A stretch of DNA of 7,771 nt from a virus (lineage: Duplodnaviria > Heunggongvirae > Uroviricota > Caudoviricetes), in IMG/VR virus record IMGVR_UViG_2740892422_000009, positions 1 through 7,771 of that record; one strand, written 5' to 3'. Shown piece after piece: positions 1-7,771 of the stretch. Both the position numbers and the translations under genes were made by a program. Each line of letters starts with the position of its first letter. Positions within the stretch are counted from its first letter, which is position 1. The notes beneath the pieces were generated by a model. That model did no database searches. It was given only the letters and a program-made list of their open reading frames with translations, and was not told where the DNA came from.

Positions 1-201
1 TTACCCATTGGCGCGGCTTAAGAGCTTATTTTTGAATTCACAATGGTCACGATATAACCATCTTGCTCGTCCGTGGATAACTTTGGCTTTAGGCAGGTCG
101 CCGGACTTAATCCGGTCATAGATGAAGGTCTTACCGAAGCCAGTATCAGCCATGATGAATTTCAAATCAACCAGTGAATCAGGCTGTAGTTCGTGTTGCA
201 T
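1..201 (-). CDS. AlpA-family helix-turn-helix protein, putative excisionase or prophage regulator (66 aa)
   Basis: Complete ORF: ATG at 199-201, TAA at 1-3 (minus strand). GGAG lies 7 nt upstream of the ATG. The protein (…IMADTGFGKTFIYDRIKSGDLPKAKVIHGRARWLYRDHCEF…) fits the AlpA / small excisionase pattern as I recall it (TG.s..tiY......g.fP.p.k.g.r...W...e...w). Position at the distal end of the pL operon matches where lambdoid phages carry xis. Confidence 0.6.
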   Translation of the reverse strand: MQHELQPDSLVDLKFIMADTGFGKTFIYDRIKSGDLPKAKVIHGRARWLYRDHCEFKNKLLSRANG

Positions 202-246
202 GAGTGCTATCTCCGGATAGGGAATCGAACCTGCAAATCAGGCAAT

Positions 247-266
247 AAAAAACCGCCATCAGGCGG
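247..266 (-). terminator. Intrinsic terminator-like hairpin between the 142-aa ORF and the excisionase-like gene
   Basis: Plus strand reads aaaaaa-CCGCC-atca-GGCGG. On the minus strand this is a 5-bp GC stem, 4-nt loop, followed by a run of six U. Confidence 0.45.
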
Positions 267-438
267 ATTGGTGTTCTTTCAGTTCTTCAATTCGAATATT
301 GGTTACGTCTGCATGCGCTATCTGCGCCCATATCATCCAGTGGTTATAGCAGTCGTTGATGTTCTCTGCTTCGATAACCCTGTTGAATGGCTCTCATTCC
401 ATTCACCTGTGACTCGGAAGTGCATTTATCATCTCCAT

Positions 439-463
439 AAAACAAAACTCGCCGTAGCGAGTT
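439..463 (-). terminator. Intrinsic terminator-like hairpin downstream of the 142-aa ORF
   Basis: Plus strand 446-463 is AACTCGC-cgta-GCGAGTT (7-bp stem, 4-nt loop). On the minus strand it is followed by UUUUGUUUU (complement of plus 439-447). It lies about 45 nt after the ORF stop at 509. Confidence 0.5.
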
Positions 464-508
464 CAGATATAATTTCCACCAAAGGCAGTAGTTGCTTGAT
501 GCTAAGAA

Positions 509-937
509 TTATTCAATATCTATTCCTGTAATATCTTTTATCTTTTTCCTTGCAAAGCCTTTTGCTAGTGATTTTGAAACACTCATAAGTGTACTAATTC
601 CCTCATCCTTAAAGTTTGTTTTTATAGCTTGCCAGACATCCTTTTGACGTAAGTCAGCAATAAAATCATGCCCTCTTGCTGTCAACCTCAGTGGTACTTC
701 GATCCAACTATATCCAACACCTTCCCCTAACGCTTTGGACATTATATGACCGAACCCAGGTTTTCCATCAACCCTGACTATTAATTCGTAGTCACATAAT
801 AATCGCATATGGAAAATAAAATCTTGGTCATATCTATTAAAGCCATTATCCTCTAGTTCACTAAGCATCGTGTCAGGGCCACGAGTTTTTTCGAATGCGA
901 TAAGTAGATCTTTTAGATATTGCTGGTCTAATTTCAT
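509..937 (-). CDS. Hypothetical protein, A+T-rich accessory (moron-like) gene (142 aa)
   Basis: ATG at 935-937 is preceded by GGAGG with a 5-nt spacer. The ORF is visibly A+T-rich compared with the exo/bet core. The protein has no motif I can assign; the N-terminal MKLDQQYLKDLLIAFEK loosely recalls small DUF-type prophage proteins, but that is not verified. Confidence 0.6.
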   Translation of the reverse strand: MKLDQQYLKDLLIAFEKTRGPDTMLSELEDNGFNRYDQDFIFHMRLLCDYELIVRVDGKPGFGHIMSKALGEGVGYSWIEVPLRLTARGHDFIADLRQKDVWQAIKTNFKDEGISTLMSVSKSLAKGFARKKIKDITGIDIE

Positions 938-947
938 TGCCGCCTCC

Positions 948-959
948 GTGACATGTCAC
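948..959. promoter_or_regulatory. Perfect 12-bp palindrome GTGACATGTCAC directly 5' of the 142-aa ORF ribosome-binding site
   Basis: Plus 948-959 equals its own reverse complement. It sits in the 28-bp gap between the 112-aa and 142-aa ORFs and abuts the GGAGG Shine-Dalgarno. It could be an operator or an mRNA hairpin. About two perfect 12-bp palindromes are expected by chance in a window this size, so support is weak. Confidence 0.25.
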
Positions 960-965
960 AGAGAT

Positions 966-1304
966 TTATATCATTAATTTTGTTTCGTGCCAGCCTTTGG
1001 TCACCCAGCATTGTGAGTCACCATTACACGGGCATGAATTAACAGGAACTCTCTCGCCGCACTTACCGCAACGTTTTCTGCTGATCGATTTTATACGCCA
1101 GCGCACACGTGCATCATCCTGGCGGCTCAGTAACGCGATGTACTCACCAAACTCGCAAGGCGCACGCCTGAAACGACGCGTGGCACAGTTACGCTCCAGC
1201 ATTTCAATTTCCTGAGCATCAAGTACAAGCTCCAGCTTACGCATACCGGATGATGCTTGCTTGGCTCTCTGATCGGCTTTGTGCTCTGTTGCTGATTTAG
1301 CCAT
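966..1304 (-). CDS. Hypothetical protein with C-terminal Cys-rich putative zinc-ribbon motif (112 aa)
   Basis: ATG at 1302-1304 is preceded by AGGAAAAGCAGA. The C-terminus carries C-x2-C-x8-C-x-C-x5-C (…RCGKCGERVPVNSCPCNGDSQC…), preceded by an Arg-rich helical region, suggesting a small zinc-binding nucleic-acid-binding protein. No family assigned. Confidence 0.5.
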   Translation of the reverse strand: MAKSATEHKADQRAKQASSGMRKLELVLDAQEIEMLERNCATRRFRRAPCEFGEYIALLSRQDDARVRWRIKSISRKRCGKCGERVPVNSCPCNGDSQCWVTKGWHETKLMI

Positions 1305-1345
1305 TCTGCTTTTCCTGCATCAGGAGAAAGACAATCATGGCGGCG

Positions 1346-1447
1346 CGGATACTTCCGGTATCTTTTTACGCGATATTCTCCTTCAATGGCACATACAAGA
1401 AGAGAGCCATCAACAGGAGTGATTGAGGAATCGACAACCAGCAACGC
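1346..1447 (-). pseudogene. Remnant of the C-terminal part of an S24-peptidase (UmuD / LexA / cI-like) gene
   Basis: The minus-strand frame directly after an in-frame TAA (1448-1450) reads ALLVVDSSITPVDGSLLVCAIEGEYRVKRYRKYP. This resembles the recalled UmuD segment [34 protein letters not shown]. There is no ATG (the six-frame track starts it at a TTG), no catalytic Ser/Lys region upstream, and the similarity stops after about 34 codons. Confidence 0.35.
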
Positions 1448-1497
1448 TTAATTATCTATAGTGTCGTATTTGCTTCATAAAATATGGCGAATAACAC

Positions 1498-1532
1498 AAA
1501 GCCCGCAGCAGCTCATTGTGCGGGCTTTTCTT
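1498..1532. terminator. Intrinsic terminator hairpin, possibly bidirectional, downstream of the secreted-protein gene
   Basis: AAAGCCCGCA (1498-1507) pairs with TGCGGGCTTT (1519-1528), giving a stem of 7 GC-rich bp plus A:T extensions. UUUUCUU follows on the plus strand and UUUGUGUUAUU on the minus strand. It lies about 70 nt beyond the stop of the 204-aa ORF. Confidence 0.55.
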
Positions 1533-1597
1533 ATACCTACTTCCTAGAGATAATTCTATGGAGGCATTAAATCAATACTGTCATTGGTAATATCATA

Positions 1598-2212
1598 TTA
1601 TCTAAAAGTCTTTCCACTTTTAACATCTAGGTATATTCTGTTCGACAACGTCATTCCTCCGCAATATGTGAAATAGATGTTTTCACCCTTATTGCTTGAT
1701 GCCATCCACCCTCCGATTTCCTTAAAATCGCTTTCCGTGCAGACCCCTTCATTTATTAACTTCCTAGCTGCCGAAGAAAACTCTTTTTTGTATATACGGT
1801 AGTCATCAGATCCTTTGATTAAAGTATCATCTCCGCTCGCATTTTCAGCAGGATCTGATGGCCTTTCACTGCTAAGATCACTAAGTTTAACCCATTCTGA
1901 AAACTTGCCATTAACGATTCCATTTTTTCTTGTGCAGGATTTATTACCTTCTTTAATATATTCGCTTTCCCCTCCAACACATGAGGCTGAATATGGCTCA
2001 GTTATACGAACCCATTCACCTTTTTTTTCTAGAAAATCTACGCCTTCCCTGAAAAATAGTTTCCCAGCCACTCCACATTTACTTGAAGGGCAGGTATGTC
2101 TTTCCGTTCGATCAACAACAACCCATAGTTTTGATTCATTTTTTGCCATTGCCGATGGTATTTGAGATGAGACAATTAACGTAAGCCCTAAAATTAGTAT
2201 TGATTTTTTCAT
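1598..2212 (-). CDS. Secreted or periplasmic hypothetical protein with Sec signal peptide (204 aa)
   Basis: ATG at 2210-2212 is preceded by AAGGAAAT. The N-terminus MKKSILILGLTLIVSSQIPSAMA|KNE has a basic n-region, a hydrophobic core and an AxA signal-peptidase-I site; there is no lipobox Cys. The mature part has several Cys and two W-containing segments that might be SH3-like repeats (speculative). Moderately A+T-rich. Confidence 0.65.
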   Translation of the reverse strand: MKKSILILGLTLIVSSQIPSAMAKNESKLWVVVDRTERHTCPSSKCGVAGKLFFREGVDFLEKKGEWVRITEPYSASCVGGESEYIKEGNKSCTRKNGIVNGKFSEWVKLSDLSSERPSDPAENASGDDTLIKGSDDYRIYKKEFSSAARKLINEGVCTESDFKEIGGWMASSNKGENIYFTYCGGMTLSNRIYLDVKSGKTFR

Positions 2213-2351
2213 TGTAATTTCCTTTTACTTTTTACAAAGCGTTTAATCATGGCTGATTATCTCTAAGCGTAGTAACAGCCTTGTGCGAAACATGTTACCA
2301 AATCGCCATTTCAGTGTATCCGCAGTTAGGCTGCCACTTCAAGGATTCCTA

Positions 2352-2510
2352 ATTACATGGTACGTAAGCGTAAAATCCCGTTGGTTGGCGGGTAATAACT
2401 CTGATCAAATCTCCCTTGTCTTTTGCTCTTACGTATGCAGCTCTTGTGTATTCAACCCAGGCCTCCAGTTCAGCAATACGCTTACTTCCATCCGAGATAA
2501 CACCTTCTAC
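2352..2510 (-). pseudogene. 52 open codons in frame with, and directly downstream of, the 83-aa ORF past its TGA stop
   Basis: After the TGA at 2511-2513 the same minus-strand frame continues VEGVISDGSKRIAELEAWVEYTRAAYVRAKDKGDLIRSYYPPTNGILRLRTM and ends at TAA 2352-2354. The composition looks protein-like. This suggests a nonsense-interrupted gene of about 136 codons (2352..2762), or a sequencing error. Confidence 0.3.
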
Positions 2511-2762
2511 TCACGCTGCTCGTTGAGTTTTGATTTTTGCTGTCTCCAGCTCAACACGCAGTTTCCCCACCGTTAGCGCAATATCCTCGTTCTCCTGGTC
2601 GCGGCGTTTGATGTATTGCTGGTTTCTTTCCCGTTCATCCAGCAGTGTCAGCACAATCGATGGTGTTACCAGCTCATGGAAAAGGTCCGCGTCAAATCCC
2701 CAGTTGTCATGCATTGCCTGCTCTGCCGCTTCACGCAGTGCCTGAGAGTGAATTACGCTCAC
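2511..2762 (-). CDS. Hypothetical phage protein, 83 aa as called; possibly the N-terminal part of a TGA-interrupted Ea22-like gene
   Basis: ATG at 2760-2762 overlaps the stop of the upstream TraR-like gene (ATGA). The protein MSVIHSQALREAAEQAMHDNWGFDADLF… is acidic and helical. My impression that it resembles N-termini of Ead/Ea22-like prophage proteins is unverified. Confidence 0.55.
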   Translation of the reverse strand: MSVIHSQALREAAEQAMHDNWGFDADLFHELVTPSIVLTLLDERERNQQYIKRRDQENEDIALTVGKLRVELETAKIKTQRAA

Positions 2763-2980
2763 TTCGAACCTCTCTGTTTACTGATAAGCTCCAGATCTTC
2801 CTGGCAACTTGCACAAGTCCGACAACCCTGAACGGCCAGGCGTCTTCGCTTATCTATGGGATCGCCACACTCACAACAATGAGTGGCAGATATAGCCTGG
2901 TGGTTCAGGCGGCGCATTTTTATTGCTGTGTTGCGCTGTAATTCTTCAATTTCTGATGCTGAATCAATGAGGTCTGCCAT
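2759..2980 (-). CDS. TraR/DksA-family C4-type zinc-finger protein (73 aa)
   Basis: 73 aa with C-x2-C-x17-C-x2-C (…CCECGDPIDKRRRLAVQGCRTCASCQ…). Length and Cys spacing match the F-plasmid TraR / phage TraR-like family, which binds the RNA polymerase secondary channel. ATG at 2978-2980. Confidence 0.75.
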   Translation of the reverse strand: MADLIDSASEIEELQRNTAIKMRRLNHQAISATHCCECGDPIDKRRRLAVQGCRTCASCQEDLELISKQRGSK

Positions 2981-3035
2981 CTTCCATTAATCCCTGAATT
3001 GTTGGTTAATACGCTTGAGGGTGAATGCGAATAAT

Positions 3036-3056
3036 AAAAAAGGAGCCTGTAGCTCC
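3036..3056 (-). terminator. Weak intrinsic terminator-like hairpin between the 71-aa ORF and the TraR-like gene
   Basis: Plus strand aaaaaa-GGAGC-ctgta-GCTCC. On the minus strand this is a 5-bp GC stem followed by UUUUUUAUUAUU. Confidence 0.35.
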
Positions 3057-3078
3057 CTGATGATTTTGCTTTTCATGT

Positions 3079-3294
3079 TCACCGTTCCTTAAAGACGCCG
3101 TTTAACATACCGATTGCCAGACTTAAGTGAGTCGGTGTGAATCCCATCAGCGTTACCGTTTCGCGGTGCTTCTTCAGTACGCTACGGCAAATGTCATCGA
3201 CGTTTTTATCCGGAAACTGCTGTCTGGCTTTTTTGATTTCAGAATTAGCCTGACGGGCAATACTGCGAAGGGCGTTTTCTTGCTGAGGTGTCAT
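3079..3294 (-). CDS. Hypothetical small phage protein (71 aa from ATG 3292-3294; the upstream in-frame ATG at 3358-3360 would give 93 aa)
   Basis: The ORF occupies the position of lambda orf61 but is longer and does not overlap orf63 as lambda orf61 does. The first 22 codons of the 93-aa version are Cys/His-rich with no Shine-Dalgarno, so the internal ATG (MTPQQENALRSIARQ…) is favoured, though its RBS is weak (GGGA). Confidence 0.45.
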   Translation of the reverse strand: MTPQQENALRSIARQANSEIKKARQQFPDKNVDDICRSVLKKHRETVTLMGFTPTHLSLAIGMLNGVFKER

Positions 3295-3370
3295 TGAACA
3301 AGTCCCATGTCGGCAAGCATAAGCACACAGAATATGAAGCCCGCTGCCAGAAAAATGCATTCAGTGGTTG

Positions 3371-3562
3371 TCATACCTGGTCTCTCTCATCTGCTTCTGC
3401 TTTCGCCACCATCATTTCCAGCTTTTGTGAAAGGGATGCGGCTAACGTATGAAATTCTTCGTCTGTTTCTACTGGTATTGGCACAAACCTGACTCCAATT
3501 TGAGCGAGGCTATGTGCCATCTCAATGCTCGTTCTTAACTCAACAGGAGATGCTTTGTGCAT
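3371..3562 (-). CDS. Lambda orf63-like small protein (63 aa)
   Basis: 192-nt ORF immediately distal to orf60a, overlapping it by 28 nt out of frame. This is the same length and overlap geometry I recall for lambda orf63. GGGGAG lies upstream of the ATG at 3560-3562. Confidence 0.6.
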   Translation of the reverse strand: MHKASPVELRTSIEMAHSLAQIGVRFVPIPVETDEEFHTLAASLSQKLEMMVAKAEADERDQV

Positions 3563-3717
3563 ACAGCTCCCCGTTTATTATTTATCTCCTCAGCCAGCCG
3601 CTGTGCTTTCAGGGGATTTCGGGTAACAGAAAGGCCGGGAAATACCCAGCCTCGCTTTGTAACGGAGTAGACGAAAGTGATCGCGCCTACCCGGATATTA
3701 TCGTGAGGATGCTTCAT
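3535..3717 (-). CDS. Lambda orf60a-like small protein (60 aa)
   Basis: ATG at 3715-3717 overlaps the exo stop (TGA 3714-3716) as ATGA. The 183-nt length matches lambda orf60a as recalled. The six-frame track begins two codons earlier, at ATG 3721-3723. Confidence 0.55.
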
Positions 3718-4394
3718 CGCCATTGCTTCCCAAATACAAAACCAATTTCAGCCAGTGCCTCGTCCATTTTTTCGATGAACTCCGGCACCATCTCGTCAAA
3801 ACTCGCCATGTACTTTTCATCCCGCTCAACCACGACATAATGCAGTCCTTCACGCTTCATCCGCGGGTCATAGTTGGCAAAGTACCAGGCATCTTTTCGT
3901 GTCACCCACATGCTGTACTGCACCTGGGCCATGTAAGCCGACTTTATGGCCTCGAAACCACCGAGCCGGAACTTCATGAAATCCCGGGAGGTAAACGGGC
4001 ATTTCAGCTCAAGGCCATTGCCGTCACTGCATAAACCATCGGGAGAGCAGGCGGTACGCATACTTTCGTCGCGATAGATGATCGGGGATTCAATAACATT
4101 CACGCCGGAAGTGAACTCAAACAGGGTTCTGGCGTCGTTCTCGTACTGTTTTCCCCATGCCAGCGCCTTAGCATTAACTTCCGGAGCCACACCGGTGCAA
4201 ACCTCAGCCAGCAGGGTGTGGAAGTAGGACATTTTCATGTCAGGCCACTTCTTTCCTGAGCGGGGCTTTGCTATCACGTTGTGAACTTCTGAAGCGGTGA
4301 TGACGCCGAGCCGTAATTTGTGCCATGCATCATCCCCTTGTTCGACAGCTCTCACGTCGATCCCGGTACGCTGCAGGATAATGTCCGGTGTCAT
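3714..4394 (-). CDS. exo: Lambda exonuclease (Red-alpha), 5'->3' dsDNA exonuclease (226 aa)
   Basis: The translation [37 protein letters not shown]… matches phage lambda Exo as I recall it over its full 226 aa. Its start overlaps the bet stop (ATGA at 4391-4394), as in lambda. Confidence 0.96.
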
Positions 4395-5176
4395 GCTGCC
4401 ACCTTCTGCTCAGTGGCTTTCTGTTTCAGGAATCCAAGAGCTTTCACTGCTTCGGCCTGTGTCAGTTCTGACGATGCGCGAATGTCGCGGCGAAATATCT
4501 GGGAACAGAGCGGCAATAAGTCGTCATCCCATGTTTTATCCAGGGCGATCAGCAGAGTGTTAATCTCCTGCATGGTTTCATCGTTAACCGGAGTGATGTC
4601 GCGTTCCGGCTGACGTTCTGCAGTGTATGCAGTATTTTCGACAATGCGCTCGGCTTCATCCTTGTCATAGATACCAGCAAATCCGAAGGCCAGACGGGCA
4701 CACTGAATCATGGCTTTATGCCGTAACATCCGTTTGGGATGCGACTGCCACGGGCCGGTGATTTCTCTGCCTTCGCGGGTTTTGAATGGTTCGCGTCGGC
4801 ATTCGTCCATCCACTCGGTAACGCAGATCGGATGATTACGGTCCTTGCGGTAAATCCGGCATGTACAGGATTCATTGTCCTGCTCAAAGTCCATGCCATC
4901 AAACTGCTGGTTTTCATTGATGATGCGGGACCAGCCATCAACGCCCACCACCGGAACGATGCCGTTCTGCTTATCAGGGAAGGCGTAAATTTCTTTCGTC
5001 CACGGATTAAGGCCGTACTGGTTGGCAACGATCAGTAATGCGATGAACTGCGCATCGCTGGCATCACCTTTAAATGCCGTCTGGCGAAGAGTGGTGATCA
5101 GTTCCTGTGGGTCGACAGAATCCATGCCGACACGTTCAGCCAGCTTCCCAGCCAGCGTTGCGAGTGCTGTACTCAT
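4391..5176 (-). CDS. bet: Red-beta (Bet) single-strand annealing recombinase (261 aa)
   Basis: The translation [66 protein letters not shown]… matches lambda Bet as recalled, at the same 261-aa length, positioned between gam and exo. Confidence 0.96.
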
Positions 5177-5181
5177 CCGTT

Positions 5182-5598
5182 TTATACCTCTGAATCAATA
5201 TCAACCTGGTGGTGAGCAATGGTTTCAACCATGTACCGGATGTGTTCTGCCATGCGCTCCTGAAACTCAACATCGTCATCAAACGCACGGGTAATGGCTT
5301 TTTTGCTGGCCCCGTGGCGTTGTAAATGATCGATGCAGAGTGATTCAAACAGGTGCTGGGGCAGACCTTTTTCCATGTCGTCTGCCAGTTCTGCCTCTTT
5401 CTCTTCACGGACGATCTGCTGGTAGTGACGCGCCCAGCTCTGAGCCTCAAGACGATCCTGAATGTAATAAGCGTTCATGGCTGAACTCCTGAAATAGCTG
5501 TGAAAATATCGCCCGCGAAATGCCAGGCTGATTAGGAAAACAGGAAAGGGGGTTAGTGAATGATTTTGCTTGATCTCAGTTTCAGCATTAATATCCAT
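5182..5598 (-). CDS. gam: Gam, RecBCD inhibitor (138-aa long form; the internal Met of …[10 protein letters not shown]… would give the 98-aa GamS form)
   Basis: The translation [24 protein letters not shown]…HQVDIDSEV matches lambda Gam as recalled, with a few substitutions. It lies 5 nt upstream of bet. Confidence 0.94.
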
Positions 5599-5696
5599 TT
5601 TTTATAAGCGTCGACGGCTTCACGAAACATCTTTTCATCGCCAATAAAAGTGGCGATAGTGAATTTAGTCTGGATAGCCATAAGTGTTTGATCCAT
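5553..5696 (-). CDS. kil: Kil, host cell-division (FtsZ) inhibitor (47 aa)
   Basis: ATG at 5694-5696 gives [47 protein letters not shown], matching lambda Kil as recalled. AGGAG lies upstream. The track ORF (89 aa from ATG 5820-5822) is an upstream in-frame extension that runs through cIII and is rejected. The 3' end overlaps the gam start. Confidence 0.75.
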
Positions 5697-5829
5697 TTTT
5701 TGGGACTCCTGGCTGATTAAGTATGTCGATAAGGCGTTTCCATCCGTCACGTAATTTACGGGTGATTCGTTCAAGTAAAGATTCGGAAGGGCAGCCAGCA
5801 ACAGGCCACCCTGCAATGGCATATTGCAT
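5665..5829 (-). CDS. cIII: cIII, inhibitor of FtsH-mediated cII degradation (54 aa)
   Basis: Not in the track because it is under 60 aa. Manual translation from ATG 5827-5829 gives [54 protein letters not shown] with TAA at 5665-5667, matching lambda cIII as recalled. AAGGAG lies 6 nt upstream. It overlaps kil by 32 nt in another frame, as in lambda. Confidence 0.88.
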   Translation of the reverse strand: MQYAIAGWPVAGCPSESLLERITRKLRDGWKRLIDILNQPGVPKNGSNTYGYPD

Positions 5830-5855
5830 GGTGTGCTCCTTATTTATACATAACG

Positions 5856-5878
5856 AAAAACGCCTCGAGTGAAGCGTT
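5856..5878 (-). terminator. Intrinsic terminator-like hairpin between ea10 and cIII (tL2-like position)
   Basis: Plus strand aaaaa-CGCCTC-gagt-GAAGCG-tt is an imperfect 8-bp stem with one mismatch. On the minus strand it is followed by UUUUUCGUUAUG, immediately upstream of the cIII Shine-Dalgarno. Confidence 0.4.
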
Positions 5879-5901
5879 ATTGGTATGCGGTAACGCCGCG
5901 C

Positions 5902-6270
5902 TCAGGCGGCTTTGATAGTCATATCATCTGAATCAAATATTCCTGATGTATCGATATCGGTAATTCTTATTCCTTCGCTACCATCCATTGGAGGCCATCC
6001 TTCCTGACCATTTCCATCATTCCAGTCGAACTCGCACACAACACCATATGCATTTAAGTCGCTTGAAATTGCTATAAGCAGAGCATGTTGCGCCAGCATG
6101 ATTAATACAGCATTTAATACAGAGCCGTGTTTATTGAGTCGGTATTCAGAGTCTGACCAGAAATTATTAATCTGGTGAAGTTTTTCCTCTGTCATTACGT
6201 CATGGTCGATTTCAATTTCTATTGATGCTTTCCAGTCGTAATCAATGATGTATTTTTTGATGTTTGACAT
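5902..6270 (-). CDS. ea10: Ea10-like protein (lambda ea10/ssb homolog, 122 aa)
   Basis: The translation MSNIKKYIIDYDWKASIEIEIDHDVMTEEKLHQINNFWSDSEY… matches the lambda Ea10 sequence as I recall it, at the same 122-aa length, and the gene sits directly promoter-proximal to cIII as ea10 does in lambda. GAGGA lies upstream of the ATG at 6268-6270. Confidence 0.8.
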   Translation of the reverse strand: MSNIKKYIIDYDWKASIEIEIDHDVMTEEKLHQINNFWSDSEYRLNKHGSVLNAVLIMLAQHALLIAISSDLNAYGVVCEFDWNDGNGQEGWPPMDGSEGIRITDIDTSGIFDSDDMTIKAA

Positions 6271-6378
6271 CTATTCATATCCTCATAGATAAAAAATCGC
6301 CTTCACACTGGAGGGCAAAGAAGATTTCCAATAATCAGAACAAGTCGACTCCTGTTTAGTTACGAGCGACATTGCTCC

Positions 6379-6406
6379 GTGTATTCACTCGTTGGAATGA
6401 ATACAC
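6379..6406. repeat. Inverted repeat GTGTATTCA-(10 nt)-TGAATACAC in the leader between the novel ORF and ea10
   Basis: Plus 6379-6387 is the exact reverse complement of 6398-6406 (9-bp arms). An adjacent direct repeat cagtg-cagtg lies at 6407-6416. It could be an RNA stem-loop in the pL transcript or a protein-binding site. Confidence 0.45.
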
Positions 6407-6442
6407 AGTGCAGTGTTTATTCTGTTGTTTGCGTGAAAATGA

Positions 6443-6460
6443 AACCCGCCTGAGCGGGTT
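6443..6460 (-). terminator. Intrinsic terminator-like hairpin overlapping the stop codon of the novel ORF (tL1-like position)
   Basis: Plus strand AACCCGC-ctga-GCGGGTT is a 7-bp stem with a 4-nt loop. On the minus strand it is followed by UCAUUUUCAC. The TAA stop (6459-6461) of the 289/293-aa ORF lies inside the stem. Confidence 0.5.
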
Positions 6461-7328
6461 ATGACCACTTTTTGTTTGGATTTCGTTGGTGAGCGTGGTT
6501 TACAGGATTATTTGATATACCCCATAACTCTGACTCGCTTATCTCTACACGAGAGAAAGACCTGCTTTCTTTCAGTTCTTTTATAAACCTAGAACCTACG
6601 ATGACATCTATTGTCCCAGAAAGTTCTTGTAAAAGATCTTTGTTTTTTCTGAGGAAGAAAACATCTTCTTTATATTTAATTTTTACATAGAATTTATTCT
6701 GTATTTTTAATATATCAAAGCATGGCAGATATCTATATCCCTCATGCTTTCGCCACTGCTTAACAATTATAACATCTCTTTCATTTACTGCATTAATCAG
6801 CCCAAGACCAAGTATAGGTATGAATATTCTATTGTCTGCCGAAAGCGTACAATTATCACCACCAGGCAAATATGTATAAATCATGTCGGAATTTTTATAC
6901 GCATCAACGAATGCACGTAAGAATCGTACATATTTTTGCCATCCGTTTATACCAAATTTACCATATAAGTATTCTTTATTTGTTAGAAGAAAACTATTTG
7001 TATCAGGAGCCTTATCTACAGACCTGTCGATAAGATCTCCAACTACGTTTACAAAGTCAAAGACAGAGTTTAATAAGAACAATTGTCTTTCAGTCGGGCG
7101 AATTTCAATTATGTAGCCTGGATGAAGACGATATTGCATCTGCTTACGAAGTATACTGAACGCTTGGGTCCGGGCATCTGAAAGCAACTTCCTGTCGCCA
7201 TCGCCGTGAGCATTGTTTCTAATAAAACTGATATAATTTGCTAATTTTTCAGCCTCTTTTTTGTGTTTTTTTCGCTCTGATGCTGAGTCTATTGGTTTTG
7301 GTATGGACTTGTAATCAATTTTCTTCAT
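6459..7328 (-). CDS. Novel A+T-rich hypothetical protein in the N-to-ea10 hotspot (289 aa from ATG 7326-7328; 293 aa from ATG 7338-7340); candidate superinfection-exclusion or abortive-infection gene
   Basis: A long uninterrupted ORF of very low GC (6661-6720 has 9 G+C in 60 nt, against 38 in 60 for bet at 4741-4800). GAGG lies 6 nt upstream of ATG 7326-7328. The alternative ATG at 7338-7340 overlaps the N stop as ATGA. It occupies the slot held by ral/sieB in lambda but is unrelated to either. I see no Walker A motif, transmembrane helix or signal peptide. Confidence 0.7.
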   Translation of the reverse strand: MKKIDYKSIPKPIDSASERKKHKKEAEKLANYISFIRNNAHGDGDRKLLSDARTQAFSILRKQMQYRLHPGYIIEIRPTERQLFLLNSVFDFVNVVGDLIDRSVDKAPDTNSFLLTNKEYLYGKFGINGWQKYVRFLRAFVDAYKNSDMIYTYLPGGDNCTLSADNRIFIPILGLGLINAVNERDVIIVKQWRKHEGYRYLPCFDILKIQNKFYVKIKYKEDVFFLRKNKDLLQELSGTIDVIVGSRFIKELKESRSFSRVEISESELWGISNNPVNHAHQRNPNKKWS

Positions 7329-7336
7329 TACGTACC

Positions 7337-7660
7337 TCATGCCAATGGAATGGATTTCCCTTTAACCTTTTGTCTTCCTTGACAAGTTATACCGAACTCA
7401 CTTGGCTTGCTATACCAAACTCGATGATTCTTGCGCTCAATACGTTGCAGGTTGCTTTCAATCTGTTCGTGGTATTCAGCCAGCACCGTAAGGTCTATCG
7501 GATTCAGTGCGCTTTCTACTCGTGATTTCGGTTTGCGATTCAGCGAGAGAATAGGGCGGTTAACTGGTTTTGCGCTTACCCCAACCAACAGGGGATTTGC
7601 TGCTTTCCATTGAGCCTGTTTCTCTGCGCGACGTTCGCGGCGGCGTGTTTGTGCATCCAT
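7337..7660 (-). CDS. N: N antitermination protein (107 aa)
   Basis: From ATG 7658-7660: MDAQTRRRERRAEKQAQWKAANPLLVGVSAKPVNRPILSLNRKPKSRVESALNPIDLTVLAEYHEQIESNLQRIERKNHRVWYSKPSEFGITCQGRQKVKGKSIPLA. The arginine-rich boxB-binding motif and N-terminal two-thirds match lambda N as recalled, with substitutions clustered in the C-terminal third. The track ORF (144 aa) is an in-frame extension into the leader. TGA stop at 7337-7339. Confidence 0.95.
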   Translation of the reverse strand: MDAQTRRRERRAEKQAQWKAANPLLVGVSAKPVNRPILSLNRKPKSRVESALNPIDLTVLAEYHEQIESNLQRIERKNHRVWYSKPSEFGITCQGRQKVKGKSIPLA

Positions 7661-7771
7661 CTGGATTCTCTTGTCAGTTAGGGAAGGTGCGAATAAGCAG
7701 GTCATTTCTTCCCAAGCTGACTCGCTGATTAAAATTTCGCGGATCTGGGCCGATTTTTTTCCCGCAAACAC
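7661..7771 (-). promoter_or_regulatory. Partial N leader (5' UTR of the pL transcript); nutL and pL are expected just beyond the window edge
   Basis: The minus strand reads …TAACTGACAAGAGAATCCAG-ATG. This matches the lambda N ribosome-binding region as recalled, except AAGAG replaces AGGAG. No lambda-type boxB (GCCCTGAAGAAGGGC) is present in the 111 nt available, consistent with nutL lying about 150 nt upstream of the N start. Confidence 0.4.

Follow-up and report, generated by a model that had tools for sequence, protein, structure and literature searches.

A candidate Nun-type transcription-arrest factor with a predicted TnpB/Cas12-like body in the pL operon of lambdoid phages

A gene directly following N in a lambdoid phage was found to encode a protein that ends in the RNA polymerase-arrest peptide of HK022 Nun, carried on a much larger body with a predicted fold of its own. 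The gene lies in the window, that is, the whole 7,771-nucleotide stretch analysed (IMG/VR record IMGVR_UViG_2740892422_000009, positions 1 to 7,771). The analysis yielded the gene, its position, the exact tail with its conservation and the predicted fold; from these we infer RNA polymerase arrest by the window protein, a nucleic-acid target and a role in exclusion. On balance, the protein is probably a modular Nun-type transcription-arrest factor with a TnpB/Cas12-like targeting body. Exclusion is the best guess at its function, proposed because of the Nun arrest tail and a relative in the nun slot of a put-type phage, and not because of location. The gene and its neighbours comprise the following features (residue numbers for protein parts refer to the 293-aa form throughout).

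6459-7328, minus strand: coding sequence, 289 aa plus stop (open reading frame list, PHROG 12139, 434 orthologue, pN/pS)
6459-7340, minus strand: longer form of the reading frame, 293 aa through an alternative upstream ATG at 7340
7329-7340, minus strand: translational-coupling junction between N and the gene (sequence read directly)
7337-7771, minus strand: lambda-type N antiterminator gene (translation, 434 annotation, RefSeq name 'antitermination protein N')
6433-6460, minus strand: intrinsic-terminator-like hairpin with T-rich tail (terminator scan)
6289-6318, minus strand: second terminator, upstream of ea10 (annotated at the homologous position in 434, L001 7019-7048; scan of 434)

A single long A+T-rich reading frame of 289/293 aa had been noted here in a preliminary description, and it was confirmed on the minus strand. 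Its GC content is 35.1% compared with 52.4% in bet, and the local counts given earlier proved exact (9 G+C at 6661-6720; no more than 38 in any 60 nt of bet). Judged from its sequence, the gene is real and not a chance reading frame, because 882 nt stay open in stop-codon-rich 35%-GC DNA, pN/pS is 0.26 (11 alleles compared) and homologs reach as low as 37% identity. Translation probably begins at the second ATG, at 7328 (289 aa, MKKIDY...), a conserved start used in the PHROG profile, in the annotation of 434 and in all homologs. The good Shine-Dalgarno sequence noted earlier is a GAGG at 7338-7335 that overlaps the TGA (7339-7337), with a spacing of 6 nt to the ATG at 7328; the alternative ATG (7340-7338) and the N stop overlap as ATGA. 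The junction is equally tight in other lineages, with an overlap or a gap of <=8 nt.

The gene had been placed correctly between N and ea10. The upstream reading frame is a lambda-type N gene whose 5' side reaches the edge of the window, and the downstream one is ea10 (DUF2528). A terminator hairpin had also been described over the stop of the gene; it was recovered as AACCCGC-TCAG-GCGGGTT at 6460-6443, beginning within the stop codon. In the pL operon this hairpin comes first among the terminators, as the equivalent of tL1. In every lineage compared, a terminator lies directly 3' of the gene, and in all of them the gene is positioned ahead of the first pL terminator. A scan for an internal promoter that could support expression in the lysogen gave matches no more numerous than in shuffled sequence. 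For nun, transcription by cI-hex read-through has been reported.

The gene had been called unrecognised and its protein a member of no recognisable family. The first statement overlooked the Nun tail: the orthologue in phage 434 (CPT_434_48), 97% identical to the window gene and annotated from the second ATG, already carries the GenBank label "Nun C-terminal peptide-containing protein". The second holds for Pfam and NCBIfam, which gave no match to the window protein (in Pfam, none at E <= 5 for any of 12 family members), and for PADLOC-DB 2.0 (0 families at E <= 1), but not for PHROG 12139, which matches residues 5-293 over the entire profile, nor for phrog_5632, the Nun family, which matches the last 20 residues (profile positions 93-112, E = 4e-5). 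A literature search found no description of the window protein or of its 434 orthologue.

Nun is the textbook case of phage exclusion by the freezing of RNA polymerase, and has been viewed as an isolated case, an ARM protein. It arrests translocation of the polymerase, excludes lambda, depends on Nus factors and is suppressed by rpoC R322H, D264G and D329G. [quoted passage not shown] The matching feature in the window is the following.

6462-6503, minus strand: Nun-type RNA polymerase-arrest tail VNHAHQRNPNKKWS, aa 280-293 (BLASTP, phrog_5632)

The tail VNHAHQRNPNKKWS corresponds to residues 96-109 of HK022 Nun with 14/14 identity (BLASTP, E = 4e-8; Nun translated from HK022). The Nun contact residues N97, H98, H100, R102, K106, K107 and W108 are all present, as is the C-terminal carboxylate that is the partner of R102 in Nun. 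Homologs found with the body alone (P0003, P0006, P0004 and P0005, at 68%, 57%, 48% and 37% identity) all retain V-N-H-A-H-x-R-x-x-x-K-K-W, and where codons differ at the invariant residues, they do so synonymously (GCT/GCG/GCA, CAC/CAT, AAC/AAT, CGA/AGA, AAA/AAG). Among IMG/VR matches, the invariance of the tail is partly imposed by the search pattern. Conserved and variable positions of the tail mirror the Nun contact map; the variable ones include 103, and N103A in Nun is essentially wild type (PMC5386594). The tail always forms the extreme C-terminus. By this comparison of homologs, selection has kept the tail as part of the family, and it is not a leftover of recombination, because it is retained with synonymous codon changes down to 37% identity. 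The upstream Nun segment DD-A/V-M-H-R-V, which includes H93 and R94, is absent, and the long family has variable residues in its place (e.g., ISNNP). H93 and R94 of Nun contact upstream DNA, and R94A strongly weakens binding (PMC5386594); for this reason, the tail by itself may bind weakly unless the body compensates.

The remainder of the protein was divided on the basis of an AlphaFold model as follows.

7134-7283, minus strand: N-terminal lysine-rich helical hairpin, aa 20-69 (AlphaFold model)
6645-7118, minus strand: TnpB/Cas12-type WED-REC module, aa 75-232 (predicted: strand beta1, four REC helices and a WED beta-barrel)
6504-6644, minus strand: low-confidence, probably flexible linker, aa 233-279 (pLDDT <50 from residue 235 onward)

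Both models were built on shallow alignments of 12-13 sequences; the first has a pLDDT of about 90 over residues 1-232, and the second, of a relative at 22% identity, agrees with it. The helices of the hairpin (20-42 and 47-69) were modelled at pLDDT 87-95, and this element is restricted to the Nun-tailed branch and absent from the remote relatives. The region that follows is predicted to have the WED-REC N-terminal fold of TnpB/Cas12. Structure prediction with a Foldseek search had been proposed earlier as a check: it returned a folded body and, against the PDB, four Cas12 proteins as the best matches, but at E >= 0.03, which is not significant. At the sequence level, similarity to TnpB is weak. 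In an hhalign comparison with 64 TnpB N-termini the score was 24.5 (null mean 14.1, null maximum 22.2; probability 4%, P = 0.009), and the alignment pairs the 'IEIRPTERQ..L..F' strand-helix with TnpB 'VVRLYPNAAQ..L..LG' and 'CSLS..NkvyIP.LGLGLI' with 'NNNIQI..rLKLPKLGWVK'. No RuvC nuclease domain (D-E-D triad) was found: after the WED domain come only about 60 residues, most of them disordered, and PF01385 gives no match. A zinc-ribbon/target-nucleic-acid-binding domain is likewise missing, with no PF07282 match and no cysteine cluster. A profile search of PDB sequences gave nothing beyond a spurious designed binder. Going by the models, the body looks like one half of a TnpB nuclease that has been domesticated. 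Two linker motifs, GT(I/L)(D/E)V and ES(K/R)SFSRVEIS, are conserved in six lineages; the first may, speculatively, be what remains of the initial RuvC strand.

The N-terminal lysine-rich helix was also considered as an N/Nun-like ARM, an idea dropped because BLASTP of residues 5-75 against N gives no alignment. No arginine-rich boxB-binding motif is present, and in BLASTP against Nun the tail alone aligns significantly. The best reading is that a domesticated TnpB fragment has here replaced the arginine-rich RNA-binding motif of Nun.

The position of the gene ahead of the first terminator and its translational coupling to N would make the protein an immediate-early pL product, produced alongside N. 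If it acts as a targeted arrest factor, the body (helical hairpin and WED-REC) would pick out the transcription complexes of a competitor, most likely those of another phage, by a specific signal in their nucleic acids (a DNA motif or a structure in nascent RNA). Binding to this signal would tether the protein to the complex, and the polymerase would then be locked to its nucleic acids with translocation blocked, as for HK022 Nun. Since the gene sits in N-dependent phages, this reading has to assume some mechanism by which complexes at their own nut sites are spared, which counts against it; the phage's own complexes would lack the signal, and N filling the hybrid cavity might possibly protect them as well. 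The nut site of lambda cannot be the target, because the gene follows N in an N-dependent phage.

The distribution of the gene bears on whether it serves the phage's own circuit instead. The tail could pause or arrest pL and pR complexes not modified by N, or compete with N for the hybrid cavity; both would adjust the N-dependent switch or hold down the expression of toxic early genes. Tight linkage and translational coupling to N in five lineages, the position upstream of the first terminator, and the passage of N itself through the RNA polymerase hybrid cavity are consistent with such a role. The recurrence of homologs in this slot, raised in the preliminary description, was indeed seen directly after an N-type gene in these five lineages, but the relative in L078, a put-type phage without N, occupies precisely the nun slot, behind a CI-type repressor and a pL-putL region of the HK022 type. 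The gene is rare, being present in 94 of 5426 complete E. coli genomes (1.7%), and most N-dependent lambdoid phages lack it. It is thus dispensable for the N circuit, and control of the phage's own early transcription is unlikely to be its function. The view that it is an accessory, horizontally acquired gene of the N-to-ea10 slot was borne out. The long-form gene was not found among GTDB species representatives, nor its divergent lineages in complete E. coli genomes. A wider profile search added three more remote relatives only and no link to full-length TnpB. Remote relatives carry an alternative '...GGAVELGKKR' tail and lie mostly on short contigs; the one informative context resembles an ICE or a plasmid leading region.

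Could the protein act without a target? In a general shut-off of host transcription, every elongation complex without N would be arrested early in infection and N-modified complexes would be immune. Immediate-early expression together with N and the occupation of the same cavity by N fit this idea, as does the in vitro arrest of non-specific complexes by Nun at high concentration (PMC5386594). However, untargeted arrest would not call for a large body for nucleic-acid recognition that is conserved under purifying selection; late transcription from pR', modified by Q rather than N, would be hit too, and the L078 phage has no N for protection. We consider host shut-off decidedly unlikely.

The origin of the predicted fold invites two bolder readings. 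In one, the WED-REC module would still pick targets by an RNA or TAM-like DNA code, making the protein a programmable device for jamming RNA polymerase, and the 14-codon tail with its terminator would be a portable cassette recombined among targeting modules (ARM, N-like ARM and WED-REC); we hold this to be a long shot. In the other, which we think more improbable still, the module would hold a guide RNA as in TnpB, Cas12 and TldR, with the Nun tail as programmable effector. The RuvC domain of TnpB forms much of the binding surface for omega-RNA and heteroduplex. The predicted fold does derive from RNA-guided nucleases, and TldRs with truncated RuvC and zinc-finger domains, some of them phage-encoded, still use guide RNAs (PMC10705468). 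Here, however, the entire RuvC domain is missing. Across six lineages, the 3' 200 nt of the gene and its flank conserve the terminator hairpin as the only RNA structure, with no covariation and no sign of an omega or guide RNA; Rfam finds nothing near the gene, and its flanks are coding sequence or terminator. A guide RNA might, however, be encoded elsewhere.

The last alternative concerns the tail itself and the joint at which it begins.

6289-6504, no strand assigned: mosaic block (Megablast and alignment)

This block is ~95% identical at the nucleotide level to the nun 3' end and downstream DNA of HK022, HK75 and O276, and the HK022 copy is interrupted by IS903. The homology to nun starts exactly at the V280 codon and extends ~190 nt downstream, a classic mosaic joint, as would be expected if the tail were a functionless by-product of recombination in the nun 3' end and the protein had a role unrelated to RNA polymerase; this is hardly credible and already largely refuted by the family comparison, since lineages with non-nun-like DNA in tail and flanks retain the same peptide via synonymous changes, always at the extreme C-terminus and with its conserved and variable positions following the Nun contacts. 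A recent recombination scar was rejected as the origin of the tail for the same divergent lineages.

The combination of a TnpB/Cas12-type recognition module, as modelled, with a flexible linker and the 14-residue jamming peptide of Nun appears to be a previously undescribed hybrid. The label of the 434 orthologue was already known; the conservation of the tail across the family and the constant position of the gene before the first pL terminator, after N or in the nun slot, are new here. The arrest peptide would then be a module that evolution has joined to a much larger and quite different targeting domain, linking two active fields, the exaptation of TnpB/Cas12 and the control of transcription elongation. 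A gene that stands unannotated in the classical phage 434 and in ~2% of E. coli prophages would also gain a candidate function. Exclusion by transcription arrest may extend beyond lambda nut to a wider and more diverse set of targets. Were the targeting rule known, the recognition module and 14-residue tail would offer a compact design for site-specific transcription arrest.

The systems already known resemble the window protein in different parts. With lambda Ral and SieB it shares the genomic slot between N and ea10 only, with no sequence or predicted structural relationship and no family match. Lambda N is likewise expressed from pL in the immediate-early phase, works on the elongating RNA polymerase and passes through the hybrid cavity; however, N is small, disordered and ARM-based and brings about antitermination, where arrest is proposed here. 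HK022 Nun (UniProt P18683; phrog_5632; PMC5386594) has an identical peptide as its last 14 residues, at the extreme C-terminus in both proteins and including all the residues through which Nun touches the beta' rudder and lid, the hybrid and downstream DNA. The two genes also share the same terminator and ~190 nt of downstream DNA, and the ARM-to-tail spacer of Nun (~42 aa) is close to the linker here (~47 aa). In contrast, Nun is a disordered chain of ~110 aa and the ARM-type Nun-like proteins have 83-124 aa, whereas the window protein has 289/293 aa with a predicted folded body of ~230 residues and lacks both the boxB-binding ARM and the H93/R94 'DDAMHRV' segment. Further, nun comes first behind pL-putL in a phage without N and the window gene follows N, while the L078 relative fits the nun pattern. 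TnpB and Cas12 proteins (ISDra2 TnpB, 8H1J/8BF8; ISFba1 TnpB, 8IAZ; RdCas12n, 9UDI; Cas12f; Fanzor2) have the WED beta-barrel interrupted by a helical REC lobe that is predicted here, and the weak profile match is colinear, including the 'yrlyPt.eQ...L' strand-helix and the 'klPklG.vk' strands. They differ in that the window protein has no RuvC, zinc-ribbon/target-nucleic-acid-binding domain or IS200/IS605 context, no detected omega-RNA and no match to Pfam PF12323, PF01385 or PF07282. TldRs, some of them prophage-encoded, are also domesticated TnpB derivatives that act on transcription in temperate phages; they keep the remaining TnpB fold with its RNA-binding interface, and a guide RNA directs their binding to DNA (PMC10705468). 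A TldR combines a near-complete TnpB fold, in which the RuvC site is degraded, with a guide RNA, whereas the window protein has shed the RuvC half and gained a polymerase-jamming peptide.

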